Notes: generated from the letters alone by a model not told the origin. A stretch of 64,000 bases of DNA from a virus (IMGVR_UViG_3300042946_000144:24332-88331), one strand, 5' to 3'. Shown: positions 15,178 through 40,765, counted from the first letter of the stretch. Numbers and translations: made by a program.

Positions 15178-15905
15178 TATTTTCCGTTTGGTGCATTACT
15201 AGCCTGTCCATCCACTCCATCATCAGTCATATCTGTTTTAACTTGGAAGTATGTAGACAGGAGTTTTTTAGATGTTAGTTCCAACACTTGACTTTCCAGG
15301 TAACCAGGAAGTGCGAAGTCTTTGTCTAAAGGATTCTTGCACCATTCCTCATTGGTGGGCTGTGGTGTACCACAATCACATTCAGGATACATCACCTCAT
15401 TAGGAACATCTTGTTCGAAGAATGCAGAAATTCTAATTGCATGCATTAATGGGTTGCTTATGTATAAGTAACCATTCATAATCCAATAGTAATGTTCCTT
15501 CTTGATTATTGGGAGCTTAAGAAGATTTACATATCTATTCACTGTAATCTCTTTGAACTTTGTTCCCATTCCTCCCATAGCATTGATTGAATAAACTCCC
15601 TGTATAACATACTGATAATTTCCTTCAGAAATGCGAGGGAGCTTGTATCTACTTCTTGCTATTGTGCATTCATCAACATATTCACAACATTCAGAAATAG
15701 GAACTTCCACCATCTCCAAACAGGGAATGGTGGTAAATAGTGTGTTAGTTGCCCAAAGTTTTCTTAGGTTTGTTTCTCGTTTTACAAGAAGAAGGGTGTT
15801 GTTTCTGATCTCAGAAGCAATCACTCTGTCTGTGATTAGACTGTCTGTAGAAAGCAACTTGTGCATGCTACGTACATCTGAAACAAGTTTTCTAAGTGTT
15901 GACAT
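15177..15905 (-). CDS. hypothetical structural protein (242 aa)
   Basis: ORF in the operon; Cys-containing. Confidence 0.5.
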   Translation of the reverse strand: MSTLRKLVSDVRSMHKLLSTDSLITDRVIASEIRNNTLLLVKRETNLRKLWATNTLFTTIPCLEMVEVPISECCEYVDECTIARSRYKLPRISEGNYQYVIQGVYSINAMGGMGTKFKEITVNRYVNLLKLPIIKKEHYYWIMNGYLYISNPLMHAIRISAFFEQDVPNEVMYPECDCGTPQPTNEEWCKNPLDKDFALPGYLESQVLELTSKKLLSTYFQVKTDMTDDGVDGQASNAPNGK

Positions 15906-17176
15906 TATAAATACTGTTTGAATATATTTGTCATACCATCAAGCAGATCTATCATAAATGCTGTCACTTCTCCTTTAGAGCATGTGTAGCCATTTTTATC
16001 ATCCCATTGACTCTTAGCATTTGAGAATGCTGGGATTTGATAGAACTTGATTCCGTTAAAGTCTTGAGATAACTCATGATGTTTATCTCCTGTAAAGATG
16101 TAATAGTTGTTATGATTTGACCATCCATCTTTAAATTCCATAGGGAATATTCCTGCGAGCTTTGAAGGTTTGATAGCATCTCCGTGGTTAAACATCATTG
16201 CTGATGATCCGTAGGAAATGTACTTCCTATACTTAGGACTGTCATCAAATTTTAATCGAGAATTGCTTCTAAAAAACGTTGATAACCAATTAATTAGATG
16301 CCATCCTACAAACTCATCATGGTTCCCTGGTACATATATCACTTCAACTTCCCTGGAAGATTGAAGCATCAGTGTTATCATTCTAATCTCATGTTCACAA
16401 ACCATTCTGAATGATTCCTGATAAGATGTAATATTTGTTTGAGGAGTTCCTTTTGTTGTGGCATTTGTCCACTCACTGTTAAACTCATCAGAACCAATTA
16501 CATATACAATCTGATCGAGGTTGTTTGACAATCTTGCTTGAGAGATGATTGTTTCTGTCTTCTCAATGATTTTTGCAAATCTATCCTCCATGTTATTCTC
16601 ACCATCAACATCATGTTTGTTTAGGTGAGCATCTTGTTTGTTGATAACAAGACAACCATACGGTTTAACTGGCTCTATCTTAGGAAGCATTATGTCCTGA
16701 GAAGCTGGTTGATATTCCTTTAGAAACTCAACAAACACATCTTGGAACACTTGTTCTGTAGATTTCTTATTGAGCCAAGCTTTAACCTGCCAGTGTGGTG
16801 TAGAACTATTTCCCCAATAGTTCTGTACATATTTTGTAATTTCCCATTTAGAAGTGTCAATGTTACACTTCTCAATAAGATCGTCTAAACTTCTAATTTC
16901 ATTAGGGGTATTTAGAACAATCTCCCCAGTGCCCCTGGAGAGATCTTCCTCATACTTTACAATCCTTTCTTCTAGATCACCTATGTAATTAGCTGCTTCA
17001 GCCTCATTATTCAAACTTTCTCGATGTTTCAATTCCTTCATAAGCACTTCAACATCTTCTTCTGTGGTTCCTAGCTTTTCAGCATAGAACTTTTTACTCT
17101 TTTTCCACTGTAACATTTGTTCCAGCTGGAAGAGTAAATGCTGGTTGTTTGACATATGTAGTTTGTTTATTGTCAT
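15905..17176 (-). CDS. calcineurin-like metallophosphoesterase with N-terminal coiled-coil
   Basis: Motif series QDAHLNKHD (DxH), VIGSDEF (GDxxD variant), VPGNHDEF (GNHD/E), NHGD and GDKHHE. Confidence 0.55.
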   Translation of the reverse strand: MTINKLHMSNNQHLLFQLEQMLQWKKSKKFYAEKLGTTEEDVEVLMKELKHRESLNNEAEAANYIGDLEERIVKYEEDLSRGTGEIVLNTPNEIRSLDDLIEKCNIDTSKWEITKYVQNYWGNSSTPHWQVKAWLNKKSTEQVFQDVFVEFLKEYQPASQDIMLPKIEPVKPYGCLVINKQDAHLNKHDVDGENNMEDRFAKIIEKTETIISQARLSNNLDQIVYVIGSDEFNSEWTNATTKGTPQTNITSYQESFRMVCEHEIRMITLMLQSSREVEVIYVPGNHDEFVGWHLINWLSTFFRSNSRLKFDDSPKYRKYISYGSSAMMFNHGDAIKPSKLAGIFPMEFKDGWSNHNNYYIFTGDKHHELSQDFNGIKFYQIPAFSNAKSQWDDKNGYTCSKGEVTAFMIDLLDGMTNIFKQYL

Positions 17177-17322: not shown

Positions 17323-17949
17323 TTATACGGTGCAAGAGGAGCTTTGTGTAAAGTTTCCAACCCCACTAACTAATTGAATATCAACATCATTTCTAACACA
17401 AACACTCTCAAAACCACCATCAGCAACTACAACTGTTGTACTAACATCAGATTCACATTCGAAATATCTAAAAGTTGCACCACCTCCACCAGCTGTTGCA
17501 AACAGTGTAGTGGATGTACATCCAGGTCTTCCAGCTGTACATGATCCTCTTGGATCAATAGATCCATCAGAAGAATTTGTAAAGAATGGATATGATGATG
17601 GATTATTATAAGCACAAATAAGTCTACCGCCTCCAGCAGATAGATCCTCTTCTGTAACAAGTCCTGTCTCACAATTCTTGTATGTAAGAATTGTTTTAGC
17701 GTTTGCAATTACTAAGAATTGAGTACAAGCTGCAGGAGTTGTTTGTAAAGGTATTTCTATAGAGTTTGTGCACTTTCCTGTAGATCTCACTATTACAGAA
17801 GTTGTTGGATCTGGAACAGTGACAGACACTCCTGTTGAGATTTCAGATGCTGTAGCTGTTCCTACTGATATAGTTGGGTTTACATTAGAGTAAATATTGA
17901 ATGGACCTGCGTCCGTTCCAATGGTTGTTAATTGTACAAATACTATCAT
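17323..17949 (-). CDS. hypothetical Cys/Thr-rich structural protein (208 aa)
   Basis: ORF followed on the minus strand by a hairpin plus T-tract. Confidence 0.5.
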   Translation of the reverse strand: MIVFVQLTTIGTDAGPFNIYSNVNPTISVGTATASEISTGVSVTVPDPTTSVIVRSTGKCTNSIEIPLQTTPAACTQFLVIANAKTILTYKNCETGLVTEEDLSAGGGRLICAYNNPSSYPFFTNSSDGSIDPRGSCTAGRPGCTSTTLFATAGGGGATFRYFECESDVSTTVVVADGGFESVCVRNDVDIQLVSGVGNFTQSSSCTV

Positions 17950-17968: not shown

Positions 17969-19450
17969 TTATATTGCAGTTGAGTCTAAACTGATCCATT
18001 GACTTCCACCAGATGCAGCAACTCTTACAACAATTTTCTGAAGTGCTGTACTATAAAACATCTCACCGATTGTAGACTCTGAAATGGTTGGTAAAGTTGC
18101 TGTATTTGTTCCAGCGGTTTGTGCAAGTCTAATTCCTCCTGTAGATGCTATTTGATCAATACGACCTGTTACAAATACTGTTTTTCCTAAAATATTAACA
18201 ACTCCTTTTTGATAGTTATAAGCATCTCCTGAATCTCTTCCTTCAGACGTTAGTACTAATGACGTTCTTTGATCTTGTTCTTGGATTGGAAAATCTCCAT
18301 CAACGGTTGATGTTAACCATAATGTAGGTCCTCCACTTGTATACGTAAAAACCCAACCACTTGTATAAGGAGTACCATCTAGTGTAGTAGCTGCTATACC
18401 AGTGAAGTCGTCTATTCCATCTAAGATTCTTAATGTATAGGTCTTTCCTGGAACCCATCCAGGGAAAGTACTTCCGTAAGCATTGGGATTTACAGGGTTT
18501 GTCCATGTATCAATCCATAAAGGATTTCCAACTCTCTCATCAAAATAGTGAGCCTGTACAGCAGAGTCTCTATTTGTACCTTGTAAGTTCTCTAATATCT
18601 GGAAAGGAACGCCTGCAGGAACAGAGGCTGGAACTATCCAAGGATGATCAGTTAACCAATTCTCCCAAGCCCTATATGCAGGGTTATGAGTGGAGTTGTA
18701 AAGATAGTTTGTAGTCCACATAGCACTTGATGCCTTTGTAGAAATTATTCTAGATCTAGATCCATCATTTGTTGGAACATCAGGTGTTCCTGTTATAGAA
18801 TCATATGTATCAAAGTTTACAGCAGATCGATTGAACGTACTCTCAGATCTATTTGTAGCATTTGTATTATTGAATATAGTTATAAAGTAGTCACTTAGAG
18901 GAATTGATGTATTTTGTGTAAGAGTTCCTCCAAGTTGTATATTACTTCCTGTTTTTGTAAGACCATTGTTTGCCGTAAGAGCAGAAAGAATACTAGTTTG
19001 AACTGTGCTTGTTAAAGAGCTAATTGTACTTAATGTCAGTACACCGTTTGAATCAGCTGATACATAGTGTGTAGGACTTGCTGTAGTTTGTAAACCTTGT
19101 AGAGTTAGAGTGTTTGTTGCACTTGTTGTAATGACTGTTGGAGTGGTTAATGTTCCTCCAAGACCAATTGTTCCGTTTGTATTTGTAAGACCATTTCCTG
19201 CTCCTGATACAGAGGACGTTTTCTCAACAAGATCGTTGTTTGTAACACCAGCAGCATACCAATATTCTTTAACAGGACCAAAGTTTACAGTGAGACCAAC
19301 TGTTAATCCTATATATCTTTCTCCTGCAACTGTAGCAGCGTTTGCTGCAGATATAGCTGCATTGATACTTGTACCATTGTAAGGACCATACCTTCTATCT
19401 ACTGGTTTTGTTGCACTAACGTTAAGATTATCATTAAAAGTAATAGCCAT
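17969..19450 (-). CDS. tail fiber protein (493 aa), paralog B
   Basis: N-terminus MAITFNDNLNVSATKPVDRRYGPY...RYIGLTVG is nearly identical to the 842-aa neighbour. NGLT(K/N)TxGxIxLGGTL motifs occur twice. Ser/Thr/Gly/Asn-rich. Confidence 0.6.
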   Translation of the reverse strand: MAITFNDNLNVSATKPVDRRYGPYNGTSINAAISAANAATVAGERYIGLTVGLTVNFGPVKEYWYAAGVTNNDLVEKTSSVSGAGNGLTNTNGTIGLGGTLTTPTVITTSATNTLTLQGLQTTASPTHYVSADSNGVLTLSTISSLTSTVQTSILSALTANNGLTKTGSNIQLGGTLTQNTSIPLSDYFITIFNNTNATNRSESTFNRSAVNFDTYDSITGTPDVPTNDGSRSRIISTKASSAMWTTNYLYNSTHNPAYRAWENWLTDHPWIVPASVPAGVPFQILENLQGTNRDSAVQAHYFDERVGNPLWIDTWTNPVNPNAYGSTFPGWVPGKTYTLRILDGIDDFTGIAATTLDGTPYTSGWVFTYTSGGPTLWLTSTVDGDFPIQEQDQRTSLVLTSEGRDSGDAYNYQKGVVNILGKTVFVTGRIDQIASTGGIRLAQTAGTNTATLPTISESTIGEMFYSTALQKIVVRVAASGGSQWISLDSTAI

Positions 19451-19472
19451 TGTATATTATATTTTTGTTGAT

Positions 19473-22001
19473 TTACGGTTCAAATTGTACAGTTTTCCAA
19501 GTCGTACCATTGTGTATCTTAAGTTTGTTAACTGCAGAATTGTAATAAATATCACCAGCACTTCCAGAAGATGGATCGGTTGCTCTTGGTTGAAGACGCA
19601 TTACATCATTTATATGAAGTGGTCTTTGCGGATCAGAATTGTTAATTCCTACATTACCATCCCATCTAATTACAAGAGGTTCAATGCTCACAGTGTTAGC
19701 ACCAAATACACTTAAAAGGTTTCCAGAAGTTTGGTTACTGTTATTTCTAAGTGAAATCGCTGTACCTGATCCTACATTCGATTGCAACCTTATTCCACCA
19801 GTGTTATTTCTAAGTATTGCTGGAGATCCTGTAAAAGCATACCCTTCCGCACTACCTGATGAAAATCTCATAAATCCACTTGTGCTAAGTTGCAAACAAC
19901 CTTGTATTGCAGCTGTACCAGAAGCATCTATTTTAATTTCACCTGTTTGGCTAATTCCTGTTGTACCCTTTCCTTGAAGTTTGATTGCATAACTATCGTT
20001 ATCAATAGCACCAGTTTCTCCTACAAATATATTACCATTAACATGTAGCTTTTCTGAAGGAGAAACTGTTCCTATACCTACATATGTACCATTGTCATAA
20101 ACTTGACTATCTCCAATTGGAGCTGTGCTATTTGTCCACTTTACAAGTTTATTTAATGTACCAGCAGGCTGATTGAAAAGTCCACCTGACAATTTATCAG
20201 AAACTACTAACGAATTATATAAACCGCCTGATAAATTACTTACGTTTATTCCATCAACTTCAAGACCTCCACCTGTAAACTTAACTTCACCGTTTACATA
20301 CAATTTGTATGTAGGACTTGCAACAGTTACATCTTCATTTATTACAAGTCTTGGAGAAGCTGCTGTAAAAACTCCGCTACCTGCAGCATTTAATGAAACT
20401 GCACCGTCTGGGTGAATAGTTAATATGTTTTCTACACTATCTACAAGTGTTCCAACAGCTGAATCTCTTGTTACAAAATTATTAGATAGTGTTGAATTTA
20501 TTAGAGAGGTTTCATTTACAAATCTAGATTCTGCAAACAAACATTCTCCTGAATATGAAGTTTGAATGTTTCCTAGATATATAGATGATCTATCAGACCC
20601 TGGTGTGGATCCTTCATTATATATACCAAATACAGCTTCGCCAGTTTGATCAGATACAGTAAGTGTTTCAATTGGAAAATCCATAGAACCAGGCAATCCA
20701 ATATGAACAGCATATTTTGCTGCTGTAATCTTAGATGTATCATTAAATATTCCAACTGAACTTCCTATTGATGTAACTGCAGAGTCTACAAGAGAAGTTC
20801 CTAATGGACTACTCCATGCTGTTAGTCTATTTGGAGTTCCAGAACCAATTGAATTAGGAATTGTAATATTTCCAGATGTATCTGCAAATGTTCCATTCAC
20901 AGATAATGCTAGAGTTTGGAAAGAAGAAGGAGCTGATGGTAAATACATTGTCTGATTTCCTGATTGGGATAAAAGCGTATTTGTATACCCAGGACCATTA
21001 AATGTAATTCTATCAAACTCGCATGTTGTATAACTTGTTCCTACTTGAACAATGATTTTATTACTGGTTCCAAGTTGTATAATTCCACCACTAGTAGTAT
21101 TAGATATATAGATGTTTCCACTTTGTATATATGTTAATGAATCTCCTAAAGTGTTTTGGACGTTTATTTGATATCCTGTAACTGTGTTAGCCCCTACTCC
21201 AGAGGACACAACTTGTTGTAATGTTGGAACAGATGGTGTAAATGTTGTAAGGTATTCAGTGAGTGCTTTTACGGATGGGTATTTTGCATCATTATTAGGA
21301 TCAGAAGTTATACCAGAACCACTTAAAACTCTATTTGCACTGTTCTCTGGAATAAATCCTAGTCCTGTATCAAGAATATCCCAATCAGCATCAGTTGTTG
21401 GAGATGGACTATCTATAAGAGCTCTTACGCTAGCACCAATTGCAACAGCTGTTGTTCCTAAGTAACCAGCAGATCTGATATACCACAAATCACCTTTGAG
21501 AATAGCTCCAGCAGGACCACTTCCTCCTGTTGTAGGGTAGGCTCCTGGAGAAGTAGATGATGGAGAAAAACTTCCTCTATCATCCAATAGACCAGCAGCA
21601 ACACTGTCTGCATATGTCTTAACTGCTTTTACAGATGGATATTTTACATCACTTGCTTGATCTGTGATAACATCTGTAGAAATATTTGTTGTAAGCTGTG
21701 TAGGAGTTGTTACAGCAATAGTTGGATTTGTAGCACTTCCTGATACAGAAATACCAGTTCCTTGTGTAATAGATGTCACTCCGCCAGTAGCTGTTTTAGC
21801 AATAAGATCACCATCAGCTATACCATCATTAAACCAATATTCTACAACAGGATTTGTACCAATCCCTACAGTTAGTCCAATATATCTCTGACCAGAAGGA
21901 ATTGCTGCAAGTGCTGCTCCTGTATTAGCATATGGACCAAACCTAGAATCAACAGGTTTTTGAGCACTTACATTTATATTATCATTAAACGTGATAGCCA
22001 T
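19473..22001 (-). CDS. tail fiber protein (842 aa), paralog A
   Basis: N-terminus MAITFNDNINVSAQKPVDSRFGPY...RYIGLTVG is shared with the 493-aa fiber. Long beta-rich S/T/G/N composition. Confidence 0.65.
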   Translation of the reverse strand: MAITFNDNINVSAQKPVDSRFGPYANTGAALAAIPSGQRYIGLTVGIGTNPVVEYWFNDGIADGDLIAKTATGGVTSITQGTGISVSGSATNPTIAVTTPTQLTTNISTDVITDQASDVKYPSVKAVKTYADSVAAGLLDDRGSFSPSSTSPGAYPTTGGSGPAGAILKGDLWYIRSAGYLGTTAVAIGASVRALIDSPSPTTDADWDILDTGLGFIPENSANRVLSGSGITSDPNNDAKYPSVKALTEYLTTFTPSVPTLQQVVSSGVGANTVTGYQINVQNTLGDSLTYIQSGNIYISNTTSGGIIQLGTSNKIIVQVGTSYTTCEFDRITFNGPGYTNTLLSQSGNQTMYLPSAPSSFQTLALSVNGTFADTSGNITIPNSIGSGTPNRLTAWSSPLGTSLVDSAVTSIGSSVGIFNDTSKITAAKYAVHIGLPGSMDFPIETLTVSDQTGEAVFGIYNEGSTPGSDRSSIYLGNIQTSYSGECLFAESRFVNETSLINSTLSNNFVTRDSAVGTLVDSVENILTIHPDGAVSLNAAGSGVFTAASPRLVINEDVTVASPTYKLYVNGEVKFTGGGLEVDGINVSNLSGGLYNSLVVSDKLSGGLFNQPAGTLNKLVKWTNSTAPIGDSQVYDNGTYVGIGTVSPSEKLHVNGNIFVGETGAIDNDSYAIKLQGKGTTGISQTGEIKIDASGTAAIQGCLQLSTSGFMRFSSGSAEGYAFTGSPAILRNNTGGIRLQSNVGSGTAISLRNNSNQTSGNLLSVFGANTVSIEPLVIRWDGNVGINNSDPQRPLHINDVMRLQPRATDPSSGSAGDIYYNSAVNKLKIHNGTTWKTVQFEP

Positions 22002-22041: not shown

Positions 22042-23550
22042 TTATGGCTGTCCAGGAATTGATGTATTATCAAATCTAATACTGTTCATTGCTGTTTCAT
22101 AATCTGTAATGTAAAACTTATAGGAAATATTACTCCAAAGAGGAGTTCCTCCAGGTGCTGTTACATTTTGTGTGTAAGGAGATCCTAAGAAAGGTCCTGT
22201 TGGATTTGTAAAGTTTCCTTTGTTATTTGGATTATTTGTATCTTGCCATGAAAGCTTTGTGTTATCTGGAGTGTTTGATACAGGAATAGCAATCCAGCAC
22301 CAGTATTGTGTAGAACCACTATTGAAATTCACTGTAACAGATCCTAACGAGCTAGCAAGAACCTTGTTAACACCTGCATCATTAGCTTGAATCAATCCAG
22401 CAATAACTCCTGCTGTAGGTTGAGAACCTCCAAGAATCTTTCCATAATAGTAAGGATAGGTTCCTTTAAACGATTGTGTAGGAGTTGATATAGTTCCACC
22501 TGCTTGTGGTGTGTTTGTTGTATTTCCTGGAGTTCTAGTATCGTTCTGATTGTAACTTGTTTTCTTAGGAAGACCAGCATTATATGTTCCAGACACACTC
22601 AATGAAACTTCTGTTTCGATTCCACCTGCAGGAGGATTAGGTATTGTGAACGGTGCTGATATGTTTCCTTGATATATATTATTAGGGTTGTTTGGATCTG
22701 GGAAAGTGAATTGATCAGGAAGTGTAGAACCTGTTCCAATTACAGGGGCTGCTGTTCCAATTTGATAGAGAGATCCTCCGTTCACAGTTCTTGAGAACAA
22801 GAAACTTACAAATGCACCAGCATTGTTTTTTGTTCCTGTACCATTAGCTGTTAAAGTTATTGTAGATCCAATCTCCTGATATACAGTTAAGCTAGAAGGA
22901 GAAGAAATTGATAACGATATTGTCGGAAGTGCGTATGTAGGAAGTTGCAAGGGGAATAAGATTCTATCAAGTACCTCAACCAGCGTTAATTGTTTCCAAT
23001 TAGCAGCAGTGTCTGGAGTGGCACCACCAACAAGAATTGAAATTGCAGAATCAGGAACTTGTGTGTTATATAATGTTGATAAATTTGTTTCTTCTGCGTT
23101 TGTCCAAACCAAACCTACGTTGTCTTCAAGAGTTATGTTTTTTCCTAAAGATGTTGGTGGGTATTTCTTAACAACACCTAGAGAGTCAACTACTAATATG
23201 TAATCAGGCTCAGAACTTTGTGTTGGAAGGTTTGTAATAGACAAAGATTTGCCATTGGTATTCAGAATAGTTGGAGAAGAAAGAATTCCTCCAAATCTAA
23301 TATCATCACCAACTTTTGTTAGACCATTACTCGCAGTAACTGTAACCTGAACCTGTGAAATGGCATTATCAAGCTTTTCTATAGCAAGACAAAGATTGTT
23401 TAGATTCTCAATACCTGAATTTGGAAGAGCAGGTCCGCAATATAATATAGTGTCACAACAATTACTACCACTGCCACTTCCACCACTAGATGGACTGTTG
23501 CAAGGATCTATATAAGTGCCATAACAAGGATTTCCAGGAAGACAAGACAT
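22042..23550 (-). CDS. tail fiber-like protein (502 aa), Cys-rich N-terminus
   Basis: MSCLPGNPCYGTYIDPCNSP...; contains NGLTKVGDDIRFGGIL motif shared with the 493-aa fiber. Confidence 0.5.
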   Translation of the reverse strand: MSCLPGNPCYGTYIDPCNSPSSGGSGSGSNCCDTILYCGPALPNSGIENLNNLCLAIEKLDNAISQVQVTVTASNGLTKVGDDIRFGGILSSPTILNTNGKSLSITNLPTQSSEPDYILVVDSLGVVKKYPPTSLGKNITLEDNVGLVWTNAEETNLSTLYNTQVPDSAISILVGGATPDTAANWKQLTLVEVLDRILFPLQLPTYALPTISLSISSPSSLTVYQEIGSTITLTANGTGTKNNAGAFVSFLFSRTVNGGSLYQIGTAAPVIGTGSTLPDQFTFPDPNNPNNIYQGNISAPFTIPNPPAGGIETEVSLSVSGTYNAGLPKKTSYNQNDTRTPGNTTNTPQAGGTISTPTQSFKGTYPYYYGKILGGSQPTAGVIAGLIQANDAGVNKVLASSLGSVTVNFNSGSTQYWCWIAIPVSNTPDNTKLSWQDTNNPNNKGNFTNPTGPFLGSPYTQNVTAPGGTPLWSNISYKFYITDYETAMNSIRFDNTSIPGQP

Positions 23551-23570: not shown

Positions 23571-24662
23571 TTATGGAATGTACATTATGTAATAGCAACC
23601 AATTCCAGGTTGATAGTTGTTGTGTGGAACATCTCCACCAGATGGAGCATTTGTAACAGCTACAGTTAATGTTGTTGGTTCTGTAAGAGTTCCGCTTTGT
23701 GTTCCAACTGTAGTTGCAGAAATGTGATTACCGCTTGAGTTTGTTCCAGCATATTCCTGAACTGTGTGTGTATGAGGATTTGGAGATACATTAGCTGCAG
23801 CTACGTGCGTGTGAGAAGGCATGTTGTCTGTGCTAAGAGCCACTCTATTTGTTCCAACAATTCCACCATTGTATATGTATGTAGGATTTCCTGTTGTTGC
23901 TGGATTTACAAGAACATTCATTGTTCCTCCAAGCATTGTTCCATCTGTAACACCTACAGCTACAACACCTCTTTTGTCTGGGGTTCCGTTTAAACCATTG
24001 CAAAGATATACCTTTTCCCAATTAGTTCCTGCAATACCTTTTCCTGTACTATCAAAATTATTTAAAGTTCCAGGAGTTGGATAGAATTCCATAGCTACGT
24101 ATGGAACCATCTTTGTGTAATACTTTGTAGAAGTTCCTTGTTCTTGTAGATATTGTCCAATCAATATAGGTAACTCGGTAACTGTTACATAAGTTACACC
24201 AACGTCTTCAACAAACTGACAAAATGCTTCGATTACATTTTGTAAAACTTGGTGCGTTGTTGAGCTTGCTGTTAAACCCTCTAAACAAGAAGGAATTGCG
24301 TAAGGTGAATTTATCTCGTCGAGCTCTGTGTTTATACTTGTGATTGATCCATTTATTGTTGTTATCTGAGCTTGCAAAGAACAAACAGACTTTACAAGAG
24401 CATTCAGAATATCAACTACACTAAGGTTTCCACACGTTGGAAGATTAGATGTTACAAGCTCACATAAATCTAATTGAGTTTTGTCAATTATGATTCCACT
24501 ACCATCTAAAGTGGATGTTAAAAACCCTATCAACGCTTGCTCTACATATGATAGGGAATCTCCAGTTTTAATACCTAGAACAGGAATATCAATACCTGTA
24601 TATCTTACGCATTGGTCAGATGTAATTTGCACACATCCGTTGTAGCAATTTGAGCAGCTCAT
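23571..24662 (-). CDS. tail fiber protein with C-terminal phage-tail-collar (MdpB-like) domain
   Basis: C-terminus NMPSHTHVAAANVSPNPHTHTV...GGDVPHNNYQPGIGCYYIMYIP matches the tail-collar HxH repeats and the N(M/Y)QPY...I ending. N-terminus MSCSNCYNGC. Confidence 0.65.
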   Translation of the reverse strand: MSCSNCYNGCVQITSDQCVRYTGIDIPVLGIKTGDSLSYVEQALIGFLTSTLDGSGIIIDKTQLDLCELVTSNLPTCGNLSVVDILNALVKSVCSLQAQITTINGSITSINTELDEINSPYAIPSCLEGLTASSTTHQVLQNVIEAFCQFVEDVGVTYVTVTELPILIGQYLQEQGTSTKYYTKMVPYVAMEFYPTPGTLNNFDSTGKGIAGTNWEKVYLCNGLNGTPDKRGVVAVGVTDGTMLGGTMNVLVNPATTGNPTYIYNGGIVGTNRVALSTDNMPSHTHVAAANVSPNPHTHTVQEYAGTNSSGNHISATTVGTQSGTLTEPTTLTVAVTNAPSGGDVPHNNYQPGIGCYYIMYIP

Positions 24663-25689: not shown

Positions 25690-26865
25690 TTACGGGATCA
25701 AAGTAGTTGTTGTTGAGGTAGTAGGCCATACAGTGGTAGTGGTTGTGGTAGTTGTTACACAATCATTATCACCATCGACTGTACCAAGTGCAGCTTCAAG
25801 AATTGCTTCAACTGCAGCAGGCAATCCACCAGTTTGAGGAACAGCAATGATTACCATTGAGTCTTCCTTGATGTAGTCACCCCAAGAATATACAGACTTG
25901 TCATACTCATTGAACTTAACGTAGTAGGTATCATAAGTTGTACCATCACTAACCCAAGATTCAAAGTTTTCGTTGTAACCAACCATTCTGTACAAATGCT
26001 TCAAGTAACCAGCTTGGTAGCTATAGTAGTTTTTCTCAAGCTGTTGCATCTCTTTAGATGTACCGCTAGGATAAGAAGAACGTTGAGTGATTGTAGCATC
26101 AGCAACAATGTTACAGTTATCAGCCACGATGAAGTCAGCTGTGGTAGCTGGACCACTGTATACGAATGTACGGAACCACATACGGTCATACTCCCAAGGG
26201 AATGCAGCAACGTCACAAGGTTGTCCGTAAGCTGTTAAAGCTTTACCAGAGATAACCAATTCAGCATTTGCGTCATCACCAACTCTTTGGAATTGGAAGA
26301 AATTGTTCAAGCTAATGTTATCAGGATTGATACCAGGAGCTTGTTGTTGCAACTTCAAAACGAAAGCATCGATCAAAGCAGGAACATCAACAGTGTCACA
26401 AGGATCACCACCACAATCGCAGCAAGGAGCCTGAACAGTTACTGAACGAGTGAGACCATTGAAATACAATGTGTCAATGTAGCTAGAATGAGCACGTAAT
26501 GTCAAAGTTACAACATCACCGCATTTTACATTCCATCCAGAAACCTTAGTTATCTGGTTTGCTGGAGTAGGACATCCAGACACTTTGTACCATTCGGTTA
26601 CATTTGTTCCATTTCCAGCATTGTTCTTACCAGAAATTTTGTCAGAACGCTTAGATCCTTGCAAATAGGTGTTTGTTCTACCTTGAGCAACATAGAAATA
26701 AGGAGCAGCAGCAATAGTACCTGAAGCCAAGCAAGTGTAAGGACCACTAGCACCTTGACCAAAGAAACCAACTTTACCAGCTGTCAAATCTTGCGTAGAA
26801 CCGCTATTGGCAATAGTTGAGCCAACAGGCACTACGAAGAGCGTAGTTAATGAAAAATCAGCCAT
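25690..26865 (-). CDS. major structural protein candidate (391 aa) with C-terminal poly-Thr tail
   Basis: ORF; C-terminus DCVTTTTTTTTVWPTTSTTTTLIP. Confidence 0.5.
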   Translation of the reverse strand: MADFSLTTLFVVPVGSTIANSGSTQDLTAGKVGFFGQGASGPYTCLASGTIAAAPYFYVAQGRTNTYLQGSKRSDKISGKNNAGNGTNVTEWYKVSGCPTPANQITKVSGWNVKCGDVVTLTLRAHSSYIDTLYFNGLTRSVTVQAPCCDCGGDPCDTVDVPALIDAFVLKLQQQAPGINPDNISLNNFFQFQRVGDDANAELVISGKALTAYGQPCDVAAFPWEYDRMWFRTFVYSGPATTADFIVADNCNIVADATITQRSSYPSGTSKEMQQLEKNYYSYQAGYLKHLYRMVGYNENFESWVSDGTTYDTYYVKFNEYDKSVYSWGDYIKEDSMVIIAVPQTGGLPAAVEAILEAALGTVDGDNDCVTTTTTTTTVWPTTSTTTTLIP

Positions 26866-26890: not shown

Positions 26891-27619
26891 TTACTCGTTT
26901 GTTTGTATTCTCATTTGTGAACTTTGTACAGCAGCCTGATTCTCCGTGTACATAGCAAGGTTTTGTACTGTTAAATCGAGAAGCTCATCTTCGAGATATG
27001 TTTCTAATTCACAGTCTTGATCTACAGATTCTGTTCCATCAAACTTAACATATCCTTCTTTATCAATGTAAACTGGATATCTCATGTAAGAAACATACAG
27101 CTTTTTTGGGATGAATGTTCCATCTGTAAAGATTGATATCTCGTCAGAAGATAAGAAGTTGAATGTTTCTTGATACTCAAATGACGGTTTGTAATGATCG
27201 TTATTCAAGAGAAACTGAAGGTCTCCGTGTTTGGTGAGATCTCTGTTAATCCAAATCTTTCTATCTTTACATCTTCCTTTTTCAGCAATAGCGTAACTAT
27301 CAATATAGAACATGTATTTTGAAAGATTCTCAATATACCCTGTCCACTGATTAATTTGCTCGTTCTTTAAACTTATTGAAAGTTCACCATCCTTATAACC
27401 TACAACAAGCTTTTGAAGATCTTCATAACGCTTCTTGAAAGAATCCAGACCAAGTCCACTCAGTGTACTAAACCCATCAACTTTTTGTTTAATGAGCTTT
27501 ATCTGAGCTTCGTTCAAAGCTAAAATCTTATCTTCTAACTGGATCTGCTGATGGTCATTAGTAGATAGTTTATTTAGTCTTTGATCAATCTTGTACAATA
27601 AACTATCTACAGGTATCAT
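26891..27619 (-). CDS. hypothetical head-tail joining/structural protein (242 aa)
   Basis: ORF, positional. Confidence 0.45.
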   Translation of the reverse strand: MIPVDSLLYKIDQRLNKLSTNDHQQIQLEDKILALNEAQIKLIKQKVDGFSTLSGLGLDSFKKRYEDLQKLVVGYKDGELSISLKNEQINQWTGYIENLSKYMFYIDSYAIAEKGRCKDRKIWINRDLTKHGDLQFLLNNDHYKPSFEYQETFNFLSSDEISIFTDGTFIPKKLYVSYMRYPVYIDKEGYVKFDGTESVDQDCELETYLEDELLDLTVQNLAMYTENQAAVQSSQMRIQTNE

Positions 27620-38631: not shown

Positions 38632-39028
38632 GTGTCAAACTTATTTGCAATACAACATCCCTATCAAAAGGAAGAATTATAACAGGATTGACCTTCACCT
38701 TCGTCCCATCTTTCACTAACACTCCCACCTTCTTCAGCTTAGAAATGATGTTATTAATCGTTGGGCTTGTGCTGTCATACCTCTCACAAAACTCCTTCCT
38801 ATTATTAGCATAGGAAATATTCCCCCTAATAGCTGTAAATGCCACAAGCTGTATTTCTCTTGTTGTCAGCTTAAGACCGTTCACAGCAGAAAGAATAGAA
38901 TAATACCTTTCAGCTGAGGCGAAGTTATCGTCCACCTGCTTTTTAAGCTTCTGCACAACTATGTTATTAGCCTTGTCCATATTTAGTTTATACAAAGATA
39001 GGAATATTAGAATAGATGTCAAATACAT
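38624..39028 (-). CDS. hypothetical protein, possible DNA-binding regulator
   Basis: ORF; likely start at the internal MDKANN. Confidence 0.35.
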   Translation of the reverse strand: MYLTSILIFLSLYKLNMDKANNIVVQKLKKQVDDNFASAERYYSILSAVNGLKLTTREIQLVAFTAIRGNISYANNRKEFCERYDSTSPTINNIISKLKKVGVLVKDGTKVKVNPVIILPFDRDVVLQISLTHG

Positions 39029-39048
39029 TTATTACATGAAATGCTATA

Positions 39049-39366
39049 TTATGCATCAATTTCTTTATAAAACTTCAAAACAATGTTGAAGAAGAAAAAC
39101 CCAATCTCCAACTTCTCAAAATAAGAAAGAGGATATAACAACTCTTTATCATCACTCTCATCAAATCCTGGATAGTAGGAAACACCTAGTGTAAATTCTG
39201 TAACACTAGTGAACCTATTTATCTCCAATCCTAGTTCAATCTCATAACTAGTGAATATACCAATGAGAATAGTTGATATAATAATCAACAAATAAAACCA
39301 TCCAACAATAGAAACAATCAATTCCATAACTTTTCGTTTTAACTGTGTTTGTATATAAAGGAGCAT
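39049..39366 (-). CDS. small membrane protein (105 aa)
   Basis: Hydrophobic segment LIVSIVGWFYLLIIISTILIGIF. First gene of the minus-strand module. Confidence 0.4.
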   Translation of the reverse strand: MLLYIQTQLKRKVMELIVSIVGWFYLLIIISTILIGIFTSYEIELGLEINRFTSVTEFTLGVSYYPGFDESDDKELLYPLSYFEKLEIGFFFFNIVLKFYKEIDA

Positions 39367-39606
39367 TTATGTCCTACCCCACCCAGCACACCCCAAAGTT
39401 ACTGGTGTTTCCAAATACAAACCAAATATTTTTTTCCATAGAAGGAAAAATTATTTTAAAACCCCCACCCAGCCTAGGAAAAATTTTTATATCCCCCCCT
39501 ACCTATTATATGCATAGGAGAAGGGACTACTCCCAGTTCCAACCCCTCCCATAATTTGGGGGATCGTGGGTATCCCCCGTATTGTTAATCACTAAATCTT
39601 AAAACT
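39367..39606. promoter_or_regulatory. divergent control region between the structural (minus) and early (plus) modules
   Basis: Direct repeat CCCCACCCAGC at 39377..39387 and 39463..39473. Poly-C runs. Palindrome TATGCATA at 39509..39516. Hairpins GGGA-CTAC-TCCC and GGGGGAT-CGTGGGT-ATCCCCC at 39557..39577. Confidence 0.5.
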
Positions 39607-39990
39607 ATGGCACTACAATTCGCCAAGTACGAAAGGGCAGAGAGCACCCTTGAATCTCTCGGAACAGTATTAGAGAATGTTGGAAAGGACGGTTTCCTTG
39701 AACTCATTCCACGCAATGTTAAGGATGTGACCAAGCGTGTTGTTGTCATCCTTAAGAAGAAGAATGGTACCAGCACAATGGTTACTTGTTCTCAGCAAGT
39801 GTCTGATGGTATCAGAAACAAAACCATTGAGTTGGGGCACGTTCTGAACTTTGAGATTCTTGAAGGAGAAGCAGGTGTTCCATTCATCAGCATGCCTGGT
39901 GGTCTCATCAGCGTTGCTGTTAAGAGCATCACTGTTAAGGACTATGCTGTTGACACCACTTCCATCAGTTTGGAAGATCTCATCGGATGA
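39607..39990 (+). CDS. hypothetical early protein (127 aa)
   Basis: First plus-strand ORF, followed by a perfect terminator. Confidence 0.5.
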   Translation: MALQFAKYERAESTLESLGTVLENVGKDGFLELIPRNVKDVTKRVVVILKKKNGTSTMVTCSQQVSDGIRNKTIELGHVLNFEILEGEAGVPFISMPGGLISVAVKSITVKDYAVDTTSISLEDLIG

Positions 39991-39993
39991 TAA

Positions 39994-40018
39994 AAGGGGC
40001 TTTGCCCCTTTTTTATAT
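39994..40018 (+). terminator. rho-independent terminator
   Basis: GGGGC-TTT-GCCCC followed by TTTTTT. Confidence 0.8.
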
Positions 40019-40411
40019 ATAGGGTGGGCTGTAATGCATTTAGGGTGGGGAAGTAAAACAGTATTTCCTTCATAACTAATTGATTATCAGCTCATTCTAT
40101 ATATTTTATTGAGGGTGAATGAGGTGATGTAGAACCCATTCTGGAATATAAACAACATTTCTCCATCTTGTCAAATCAAAAGGCATTTGGCATAAATATA
40201 GCATTATGATTACACTTTGTGTTCTACCTAACTTTGTTGGTACTAAGAGAGAGTTTATACTATGTGCTCTTTCTTGTTTATTATTAGATAGTATTTATCT
40301 TGTTCCTATGATATGTGGGCTGTAACAAGCCCATTTCTGTCCATAGACTATTGTCTATGCTGATGATGACCTAATTGAGGGTCGAAACAGAAACACACAA
40401 AACTAAATAAA

Positions 40412-40666
40412 ATGGAACAGTCTTTAAAGGTTATAGGAAAGATTACACTTCCTGATGCTCCTGAAAAGCATAAATGTGTATGTGATGATTGTAAAGATGT
40501 TTTGGATGATTCATACGGTGATCCAAGAACTAAAATTACCACTGAATATTTAGATGGTTCTAAAAGTGAGAGGTTTATATGTCCTAATTGTGAGTTTATG
40601 AAATATGTGGATCATGAACCAATTAGTATATTTGATGGTACACCAGATTGGATGAGAATGTTATAA
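40412..40666 (+). CDS. zinc-ribbon-like small protein (84 aa)
   Basis: CVCDDCKD ... CPNC. Confidence 0.45.
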   Translation: MEQSLKVIGKITLPDAPEKHKCVCDDCKDVLDDSYGDPRTKITTEYLDGSKSERFICPNCEFMKYVDHEPISIFDGTPDWMRML

Positions 40667-40692: not shown

Positions 40693-40765
40693 GGGTCTAT
40701 AGTTAAATGGATATAACCACAGCCTTCTAAGCTGTTGTTCCTAGTTCGATTCTAGGTGGACCTAC
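40693..40765 (+). tRNA. tRNA-Arg (anticodon UCU)
   Basis: Acceptor GGGTCTA/TGGACCT (two GU pairs). D-stem GTTA/TAAC. Anticodon stem ACAGC/GCTGT with loop CTTCTAA. T-arm CCTAG-TTCGATT-CTAGG. 73 nt, no encoded CCA. Confidence 0.85.

Follow-up and report, generated by a model that had tools for sequence, protein, structure and literature searches.

A shared N-terminal module in adjacent fiber genes of an uncultivated crAss-like phage and its candidate docking domain in the upstream gene

Overall organization of the fiber genes

The stretch of DNA analyzed here (IMGVR_UViG_3300042946_000144:24332-88331; 64,000 nucleotides, to be referred to as the window) covers the structural module, or structural arm, of an uncultivated, deeply divergent crAss-like phage, encoded on the minus strand. 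We describe three consecutive fiber genes in this module, all of them open reading frames (ORFs) on the minus strand: g502 (502 residues; 22042..23550), a proposed adapter or primary fiber protein; g842 (842 residues; 19473..22001), directly downstream of g502 with a gap of 40 nucleotides; and g493 (493 residues; 17969..19450), located 22 nucleotides downstream of g842. The g842 and g493 proteins, the first and second A-type fiber proteins, start with a common module (the A-domain), and the g502 protein ends in a different domain (C502), which is proposed to receive the N-terminal arm of that module. What is new is that these two domains, neither of them catalogued, are paired almost obligately in a very large number of uncultivated viruses, and that the arm co-evolves.

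Similarity between g493 and g842

The two proteins start with MAITFNDNLNVSATKPVDRRYGPY (g493) and MAITFNDNINVSAQKPVDSRFGPY (g842), and the motif RYIGLTVG is present in both. A global alignment of residues 1-77 of g493 with residues 1-69 of g842 contains 44 identical residues, equivalent to 64% of the ungapped columns and 57% of all columns. This is well over the 30% that a first-pass annotation of the window had taken as the least identity compatible with a shared domain. The local score for the N-terminal regions is 209, compared to 26 ± 5 for shuffled sequences, and the BLASTP E value is 5e-20. The homology over about 70 residues is therefore real, and its earlier description as near-identical is overstated. 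The identity is 82% for residues 1-22 and 83% for the first 23 residues.

A comparison of the DNA at the two gene starts shows 77% identity over the first 66 nucleotides, with a longest exact match of 12 nucleotides. In addition, 7 of the 18 identical codons in the arm show synonymous differences. The synonymous divergence and the short shared word indicate that the similarity is maintained at the protein level. A recent event of duplication or gene conversion can therefore be rejected as the origin of the arm identity.

Beyond the module, g493 and g842 resemble each other no more than shuffled sequences do (score of 62, compared to 63 ± 8.5), apart from a common motif of about 25 residues at their C-termini (GEMFYSTALQKI..W and GDIYYNSAVNKL..W). 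The complete divergence of the distal regions that had been claimed thus holds apart from this motif. It is located at 17969-18060 in g493 (GEMFYSTALQKIVV...W) and 19473-19560 in g842 (GDIYYNSAVNKLKI...W), with a local score of 41 compared to 19.9 ± 4 for shuffles, 2 of 1000 of which reach this score. The g842 copy matches phrog_8309. A strict regular expression for the motif matches nothing but these two genes of the window, the expression being too narrow for the wider family.

Translation of the window in all six frames gives exactly three copies of the pattern NGLT..G..I..GG.L, at residues 86 and 162 of g493 and at residue 75 of g502. It is absent from g842, which has only a looser G-V-T-S-I-T-Q-G-T-G-I-S-V-S-G variant. 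The modules of this type had been described as shared by the two A-type genes and recurring in g502; the recurrence between g493 and g502 is borne out, and the presence in g842 is not. The repeat units of g493 and g502 have 34-36% identity (E 6e-5). In the form given by the first-pass annotation, the finding is an ordinary signature of modular fiber genes, and its interpretation there was correct.

Anatomy of the shared N-terminal module

The A-domain is bipartite: about 22 residues form an unstructured arm (MAIxxNDNxxxxAxKPxDxRxG), and the next 50 or so form a folded core. The arm of g842 (residues 1-22, MAITFNDNINVSAQKPVDSRFG; 21936..22001, minus strand) is a proposed docking peptide, and its residues 1-20 are unstructured in the AlphaFold2 (AF2) monomer model, with predicted local distance difference test (pLDDT) values of 31-51. 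The core of this protein (residues 23-71; 21789..21935, minus strand) is predicted to contain one helix together with β-strands, with pLDDT values of 83-88. For the arm of g493 (residues 1-22, MAITFNDNLNVSATKPVDRRYG; 19385..19450, minus strand), residues 1-10 are disordered in the AF2 model. The g493 core (residues 23-79; 19214..19384, minus strand) has pLDDT values of 70-79 and carries a paralog-specific insertion of 6+2 residues relative to g842. The arm of g493 is 100% identical in the related proteins P0002, P0003, P0004, P0006 and P0015, and the distal part of P0015 is different.

A hidden Markov model (HMM) of the A-domain matches residues 1-71 of g842 (E 2e-36) and residues 1-79 of g493 (E 4e-29). 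In a set of 1.84 billion proteins, a profile of the 71-residue module found at least 2,635 clusters at 50% identity (1,143 of them at E <= 1e-10), nearly always with the match at residues 1-71, in proteins of 80-1,474 residues (cluster representatives). In 77 IMG/VR loci, the module starts proteins of 130-1,867 residues, often encoded by two to three tandem genes, on contigs of a few kb to more than 360 kb.

The core is also found without the arm. About 15 tandem copies (..IP..RY.GQ.V.V....Y.F..GI.D.DL.P..) are present in one protein of 1122 residues (P0263), which demonstrates that the core is a small fold of its own and can be separated from the arm. Moreover, the core is located at residues 26-80 of gp19 of the gut Bacteroides phage crAss002, with a different arm and no C502 upstream. 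A search of phage records with tblastn gave no match for g493 or g502, and g842 matched crAss002 and cr107_1 only, through the core. The crAss002 gp19 protein (1,153 residues; L001 11926-15387; also in cr107_1, L002) is annotated as a 'phosphatase'. It is placed where crAss genomes have fiber genes, and this annotation is therefore probably wrong.

The module appears to be uncatalogued. Pfam contains nothing for g493 or g842 at E <= 0.1, and PHROGs nothing for 22 members of the A-domain family. A search of the Protein Data Bank (PDB) sequences with the A-domain profile found nothing, and a literature search with motif strings of the module returned no papers.

The g502 protein and its C-terminal domain

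The g502 protein starts with a Cys-rich segment (residues 1-70; 23341..23550, minus strand), the presumed virion anchor, which is kept in 47 homologs. By analogy with the disulfide-stabilized collar of crAss001 (PMC10172136), this segment may attach the protein to the virion or its tail. It is followed by one shaft repeat of the g493 type (residues ~71-140; 23131..23340, minus strand), with NGLTKVGDDIRFGGIL at residue 75, which has 36% identity to residues 84-146 of g493 (E 6e-5).

The rest of the protein is C502 (residues 140-502; 22042..23133, minus strand), a C-terminal domain of about 335 residues and the proposed socket for the A-type arms. Its HMM matches residues 140-495 with an E value of 2e-114. 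Full-length orthologs of g502 in related phages are 40-69% identical.

No gp10-related or other family was found in Pfam for 28 members of the C502 family at E <= 0.1. The C502 profile has no match among PDB sequences, and PHROGs gave nothing consistent for this domain. The g502 protein itself has no Pfam match, including any to an N-terminal anchor of the T7 gp17 type, and its Cys-rich segment belongs to no catalogued family. A T4gp10-like domain is not recognizable in C502 on sequence alone, and its fold may yet be gp10-like. Among cultured phages, C502 was found in none of those in the collection of phage records searched. Searches of the PDB sequences with g842, g493, four neighboring genes and the A-domain and C502 profiles gave nothing except a weak match to crAss001 gp34 (see below).

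The N-terminal segments of g502 (23341-23550) and of the protein encoded upstream, g363 (24530-24662), both start with MSC... and are Cys-rich. They can be aligned with hhalign at a probability of 56% (E 1e-4) over 27 columns, a weak and suggestive match, and a BLAST comparison of the two segments for a shared class found nothing. These segments may represent a second shared class of anchors, directed at the tail itself.

Conserved order of C502 and A-type genes

In 75 of 78 loci, the gene that immediately precedes the first A-type gene ends in C502. Two of the three exceptions have less than 700 nucleotides of upstream flank, and the third (L035) has 10 kb. Among the 94 A-type genes of the non-redundant loci, 71 are directly preceded by a gene ending in C502 (median gap of 6 nucleotides, range -4 to 55). 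A further 12 come directly after another A-type gene, which is the arrangement of g842 and g493. The reciprocal analysis, with loci picked by C502, gives the same near-obligate order: an A-type gene is directly next in 61 of 66 distinct C502 genes, and the five exceptions are one gene type, with a single small ORF in between.

The pairing spans contigs of 4 kb to more than 360 kb as well as bacterial genomes. In a scan of bacterial genome assemblies with a narrow alignment, a C502-ending gene was found upstream of the A-type gene in all four loci; the two genes abut in three of them (including Mucilaginibacter) and are about 394 nucleotides apart in Chryseolinea. The proteins that carry C502 have 167-1,273 residues, and their N-termini are of many kinds. 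Several loci have a chain architecture, with C502 at the end of an A-type protein and a further A-type gene behind it. The same trio of A-type genes is present in two sequences of 362,763 bp, L058 from IMG/VR and L158 (JBAZIW010000001.1), a 'Candidatus Paceibacterota' metagenome-assembled genome. The latter is probably a jumbo-phage genome that was binned as a bacterium.

The tandem arrangement of g842 and g493, with a gap of only 22 nucleotides, could also mean that the two proteins are serial segments of one fiber, g842 being proximal and g493 distal, rather than parallel branches. The genes for the long tail fiber of T4 are ordered head to tail, and the short C-terminal motif common to g842 and g493 would fit this arrangement as well. 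However, where serial joining is implied by the gene order, the first A-type protein ends in C502, and g842 does not have this domain. Moreover, the 82% identity of the arms suggests the same partner and not different ones. We therefore regard a serial arrangement of these two proteins as very unlikely.

Co-evolution of the arm with C502

Concerted evolution was examined in seven genomes with both paralogs, giving 17 quartets that represent only about three independent clades. For residues 1-22, identity averages 80% between the paralogs within a genome and 59% between orthologs from different clades, and all 17 quartets agree in this. For residues 23-71, on the other hand, the orthologs are 55% identical and the paralogs 50%, that is, the core follows orthology. 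As the arms are more similar within a genome than across orthologs, both appear to follow something genome-specific, and the pattern is as would be expected if both arms fit one genome-specific partner. It agrees with the suggestion in the first-pass annotation that the two proteins, which it had taken as alternative receptor-binding proteins (a function that is presumed here), dock to the same site. The shared site is probably the C-terminal domain of the upstream g502 protein, and not the tail itself.

The relationship to C502 can be seen in two further comparisons. Paralogs that share one socket gene have an arm identity of 0.78, compared to 0.62 for paralogs that each have their own socket gene (Mann-Whitney p 0.004); for the core, the two groups do not differ significantly. 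In 72 adjacent pairs, the identity of the arm is correlated with that of the 125 C-terminal residues of C502 (rho 0.53; partial 0.49 with the core controlled), a level reached in 0 of 300 permutations. The corresponding values for the core are 0.25 and 0.13 (partial). The correlation extends to the second A-type gene, which is located kilobases (1.5-4 kb) away from C502. In the 14 loci with a shared socket, the rho for this gene is 0.50 for the arm and 0.00 for the core, which argues against simple DNA linkage.

Linkage is at the center of an alternative explanation, in which C502 is the receptor-binding head of the upstream fiber. The 3′ end of C502 and the arm would then be a DNA junction that promotes the exchange of cassettes, and the two proteins would not contact each other. 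The arm starts a median of 6 nucleotides from the stop codon of C502, so that linkage alone predicts co-divergence for the first A-type gene, and mosaic breakpoints are located just after the arm and core (see below). In comparison, linkage does not account for the second gene, 1.5-4 kb away, whose arm still tracks C502 although its core does not, nor for the closer similarity of arms in paralogs with a shared socket than in those with their own. In addition, the arms are alike at the protein level despite their synonymous divergence, and a longest shared word of 12 nucleotides is too short for efficient homologous recombination. A mere recombination linker is thus improbable.

A second alternative is that both A-type N-termini enter the same type of site directly on the collar or hub of the tail, with the C502-A order reflecting conserved synteny only. 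There is a precedent in crAss001, where residues 1-26 of gp22 are in the hub (PMC10172136), and the window has structural genes of the crAss type. Concerted evolution of the arms is equally compatible with any genome-specific partner. Several observations speak against direct docking, however. The C502-A pairing extends over contigs of 4 kb to more than 360 kb and bacterial genomes, with many unrelated N-termini in the C502 carriers, which is hard to explain by inherited synteny. The chain architectures imply serial attachment, and the arm tracks C502 specifically, including that of the distant second gene. Neither crAss001 gp22 nor any solved chain is similar in sequence, and in crAss002 the core occurs without the arm and without C502. 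Overall, direct docking to the tail is an unlikely explanation, but it is somewhat more probable than the recombination linker.

Fiber bodies and mosaicism

Downstream of its A-domain, g842 contains a widespread conserved fiber domain (residues ~100-265; 21207..21704, minus strand), with segments of 50-60% identity in many proteins. The domain recurs behind many unrelated N-termini, such as MPNIKISQLP..., Mtd_N/PF18454 and a Cys-rich MRTAAICPTC... segment. It has no family assignment, and residues 140-210 have pLDDT values of about 90 in the AF2 model. The distal region (residues 266-842; 19473..21206, minus strand) is exchangeable and presumably binds receptors. In syntenic relatives, whose proteins have 719-1044 residues, it is replaced by unrelated sequence past about residue 270, 418 or 500. 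The segment of residues 421-600 is hypervariable, with 20-70% identity. On related contigs of about 110 kb, the g842 orthologs are 51-68% identical.

The g493 protein has about 1.3 copies of a shaft repeat (residues 84-183; 18902..19201, minus strand), with a unit of about 70-75 residues that starts with NGLTxxGxxIxLGGTL. Relatives such as P0030 have 2-6 tandem copies of this unit, with a period of 70 residues. The distal domain (residues ~190-493; 17969..18883, minus strand), also presumed to bind receptors, contains a β domain that is confidently predicted at residues 310-390. Orthologs of g493 are 42-88% identical.

Distal and N-terminal domains have been recombined among the relatives, as the first-pass annotation had proposed with its module shuffling. 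The distal domain of g493 is found behind a g502-type N-terminus in P0009, P0010, P0013, P0014 and P0016, with about 45% identity, and an A-type N-terminus is combined with a g502-type C-terminus in P0103-P0105. In P0015, the arm is identical to that of g493 and the distal part is 41-47% identical, while in P0005 the arm is 55% identical and the distal part 73-77%. The breakpoints are located just after the core and near residues 270, 420 and 500 of g842. Related uncultivated contigs (~100-115 kb) are collinear with the window and show the cassette swapping that had been anticipated: their flanking proteins are 80-95% identical, compared to 40-55% for the fiber genes (g363, g502, g842 and g493), and the distal part of g842 is replaced. 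One collinear relative has three A-type genes.

The fold matches of g842 are dominated by proteins of the tail fiber class. A search of BFVD with the g842 model gave 41 matches at E <= 0.001, mostly tail fiber, S74 intramolecular-chaperone and Mtd_N proteins, the best being a 'Tail fiber protein' (E 2.6e-10). Relatives that share the shaft repeat end in Peptidase_S74 or K1-lyase_C domains. The proteins have the position in the tail module, the modular β-rich build and the similarity in fold to known fibers that are generic features of tail fibers. A precomputed tag, PF26696.1, is present on many of the relatives P0029-P0102, and it matches neither the A-domain nor C502.

Neighboring genes and phage context

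On the minus strand, the terminase, portal and major capsid protein (MCP) genes are followed by that of a 242-residue protein, the fiber block, a phosphoesterase-like gene and the genes for giant virion proteins. The terminase, portal, MCP and giant virion proteins match the crAss gene order, and these genes, with the giant proteins of the type packaged in the virion, form a collinear structural module as in other Crassvirales-like phages. Among the window proteins, the portal matches phrog_6547 (E 5e-103), the major head protein matches phrog_11589 (E 1e-31), and a protein of 1,855 residues matches phrog_37948 and phrog_15100. The portal is 24-29% identical to those of Crassvirales across 80-98% of its length. 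No DNA-level relative of the fiber block was found among 50,697 phage records.

The fiber block is placed after ring-protein-like genes. Residues 11-232 of the 242-residue protein (26891-27619) can be aligned with residues 10-232 (of 238) of crAss001 ring protein 4/5, gp34. This end-to-end alignment is weak (E 0.18) and is consistent with a tail barrel of the crAss type. The gene at 25690-26865 encodes a structural protein of 391 residues with a C-terminal poly-threonine tract (TTTTTTTTVWPTTSTTTT); it is kept in relatives at 69-83% and has no family match.

The g363 gene (23571..24662, minus strand), upstream of g502 in the same fiber block, encodes a fiber-like protein with the Cys-rich N-terminus described above. 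It matches phrog_8763 'tail protein' (E 7e-15) and phrog_8469 'tail fiber protein' (E 7e-8), with a weak match to Pfam Gp10_C (E 0.004) that is under the curated cutoff. The gene is syntenic in every relative examined.

The position of the genes bears on the possibility that g842 and g493 are head fibers, decorating the capsid with their N-termini in hexon pockets like gp21 and gp29 of crAss001. Those proteins bind the capsid through N-terminal residues 1-38 and 1-58. However, the crAss001 head fibers have about 100 residues, compared to 493 and 842 residues here, and the present genes are in a tail-gene block adjoining the matches to tail fiber PHROGs. The coupling to C502 is found in bacterial genomes and jumbo-phage contigs as well, and the fold matches are to proteins of the tail fiber class. 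A role as head fibers is extremely improbable.

Directly 3′ of g493 is g208 (208 residues; 17323..17949, minus strand), the product of which starts with MIVxITLTTAGxDxGPFxLYS. Homologs of 36-41% identity are found at the equivalent position in L015 and L049, and the gene is kept in some relatives. It has no family match in Pfam or PHROGs, and it could be a fiber assembly factor or a further small fiber component. Next to it in the block of virion proteins, between the fiber genes and the giant virion proteins, is a gene of 423 residues (15905-17176) similar to a calcineurin-type phosphoesterase or DNA-repair exonuclease (phrog_704, E 7e-49), which is syntenic and 31-78% identical in relatives. 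A tRNA-Arg(TCT) gene (40693-40765) is located at the switch in gene orientation and GC skew (~39000-40500), from the minus-strand structural arm to a plus-strand arm.

Proposed model for the fiber

In the model that we favor, the three co-oriented genes would build a branched fiber. The g502 protein would be the adapter or primary fiber, composed of the Cys-rich N-terminus (the presumed tail anchor), one shaft repeat and C502. The g842 and g493 proteins would be secondary fibers, each having the arm and core followed by unrelated, exchangeable distal modules for different host receptors. The arms of both would plug into C502 of g502, giving two specificities per virion, either on one fiber or on different copies of the fiber. 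As the plug-socket interface would be constant within a genome, the distal cassettes could be swapped by recombination, with the assembly undisturbed. Physical docking between the arm and C502 is suggested by the adjacency of the genes and the co-divergence of the two elements. A trimeric state, the stoichiometry, the binding of receptors and the anchoring of g502 are presumed. On balance, we lean, by a modest degree, to g502 being an adapter whose C502 receives the arms of g842 and g493, with exchangeable distal modules.

A number of points weigh against this model. C502 is located where the receptor-binding head of a fiber normally sits, and two plugs with 82% identical arms would have to be accommodated by one socket. 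An internal duplication of C502 was considered as the source of two sockets and rejected (hhalign probability 0.05). The L035 locus has no C502 despite its 10 kb of upstream flank. All three comparisons of the arm with C502 are suggestive, being based on non-independent comparisons without phylogenetic correction; the quartets come from about three clades, and half of the cases with a shared socket are from the family of the window itself. For the first A-type gene, some of the co-divergence could be due to the arm being tightly linked, at the DNA level, to the 3′ end of C502. Finally, the AF2 models of g842 and g493 have low overall pLDDT values (60-63), and Foldseek comparisons of both with the PDB, made with monomer models of probable trimers, gave nothing below E 0.1.

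A broader proposal, which we put forward tentatively and with slightly less than even expectation, is that the A-domain arm and core together with C502 are a general, uncatalogued plug-and-socket connector for segmented or branched fibers. It would be used in thousands of uncultivated phages, from crAss-like podoviruses to contigs of more than 300 kb and elements in Bacteroidota genomes, with the 22-residue arm as a lineage-specific compatibility code.

If the joint between the arm and C502 is real, it would provide a sequence rule to recognize and order fiber components in a large unannotated part of the environmental virome, including relatives of the crAss-like phages, the receptor-binding proteins of which are essentially unknown. 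Connectors could be told apart from true receptor-binding tips, which would help host prediction and explain how the exchange of cassettes alters host range. A likely error of annotation would be corrected as well, since conserved C-terminal domains of the C502 kind would normally be labeled as the receptor-binding head. For modular phage engineering, it would offer a second, unrelated pair of docking peptide and branching domain, beside the T4gp10-like systems of enterobacterial phages.

Comparison with known systems

The closest parallel for the proposed adapter is in phage K1-5, where the gp37 adapter, which has a T4gp10-like domain, holds two receptor-binding proteins (RBPs) through N-terminal peptides of 7 and 11 residues and gives a dual host range (PMC6872550). 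As in K1-5, K1E and SP6, one tail-anchored adapter would carry two RBPs through short conserved N-terminal peptides. There are clear differences, however. The peptides of K1-5 differ from each other (7 and 11 residues) and bind different sites, whereas here the arms have 22 residues, are 82% identical and are followed by a core of about 50 residues. C502 has no sequence similarity to the T4gp10-like domain or any catalogued family. The host and lineage are also unrelated, the present one being a crAss-like phage that probably infects Bacteroidota.

In KP32, the branching domain of RBP1 binds a conserved peptide of 29 residues in RBP2 (PMC13352976). Removal of the branching domain or of the 29-residue peptide in anchor-branch systems of the KP32/KP34/G7C type abolishes the incorporation of RBP2 (PMC13352976, PMC6872550). 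The KP32/KP34, G7C and CBA120/Ackermannviridae systems have an RBP1 with an anchor and a branching domain, an RBP2 with a docking peptide, and swappable distal domains. A short conserved N-terminal peptide on the secondary RBPs, characteristic of such branched systems, is found here as well, with the arms being 82% identical between the paralogs and 100% identical in close relatives with a differing distal part. The first protein of KP34 group A has a C-terminal docking domain and no enzymatic domain, like g502. In comparison, the domains of these systems are unrelated in sequence to those described here, where one socket gene is followed by two plug genes. Moreover, the C502-A pair is present in thousands of uncultivated proteins, including those on jumbo-phage contigs, and is known here from sequence.

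The virion of crAss001 is of the type expected for the present phage, and an N-terminal peptide of about 26 residues holds its gp22 fiber in place. Residues 1-26 of gp22 sit in the collar hub, and gp22 in turn carries further fiber proteins (PMC10172136). Here, a different partner is proposed, the C-terminal domain of another fiber protein and not the collar. As regards relatives of gp22 or of the hub proteins THA/THB (gp38/gp39), no crAss001 chain was found among the PDB sequences for g842, g493 or the A-domain profile, and of four neighboring genes only that of the 242-residue protein weakly matches gp34 (E 0.18).

In the long tail fiber of T4 (gp34-gp35-gp36-gp37), consecutive genes encode segments that are joined C- to N-terminus, with conserved joints and variable distal tips. 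The present genes show no homology to this fiber, the fold-search matches to T4 gp34 being insignificant, and the likeness is in the arrangement, consecutive genes for fiber segments with conserved joints and variable tips. T4 uses distinct joints and a monomeric knee protein, whereas the phages described here would use one reusable domain pair for both chains and branches.

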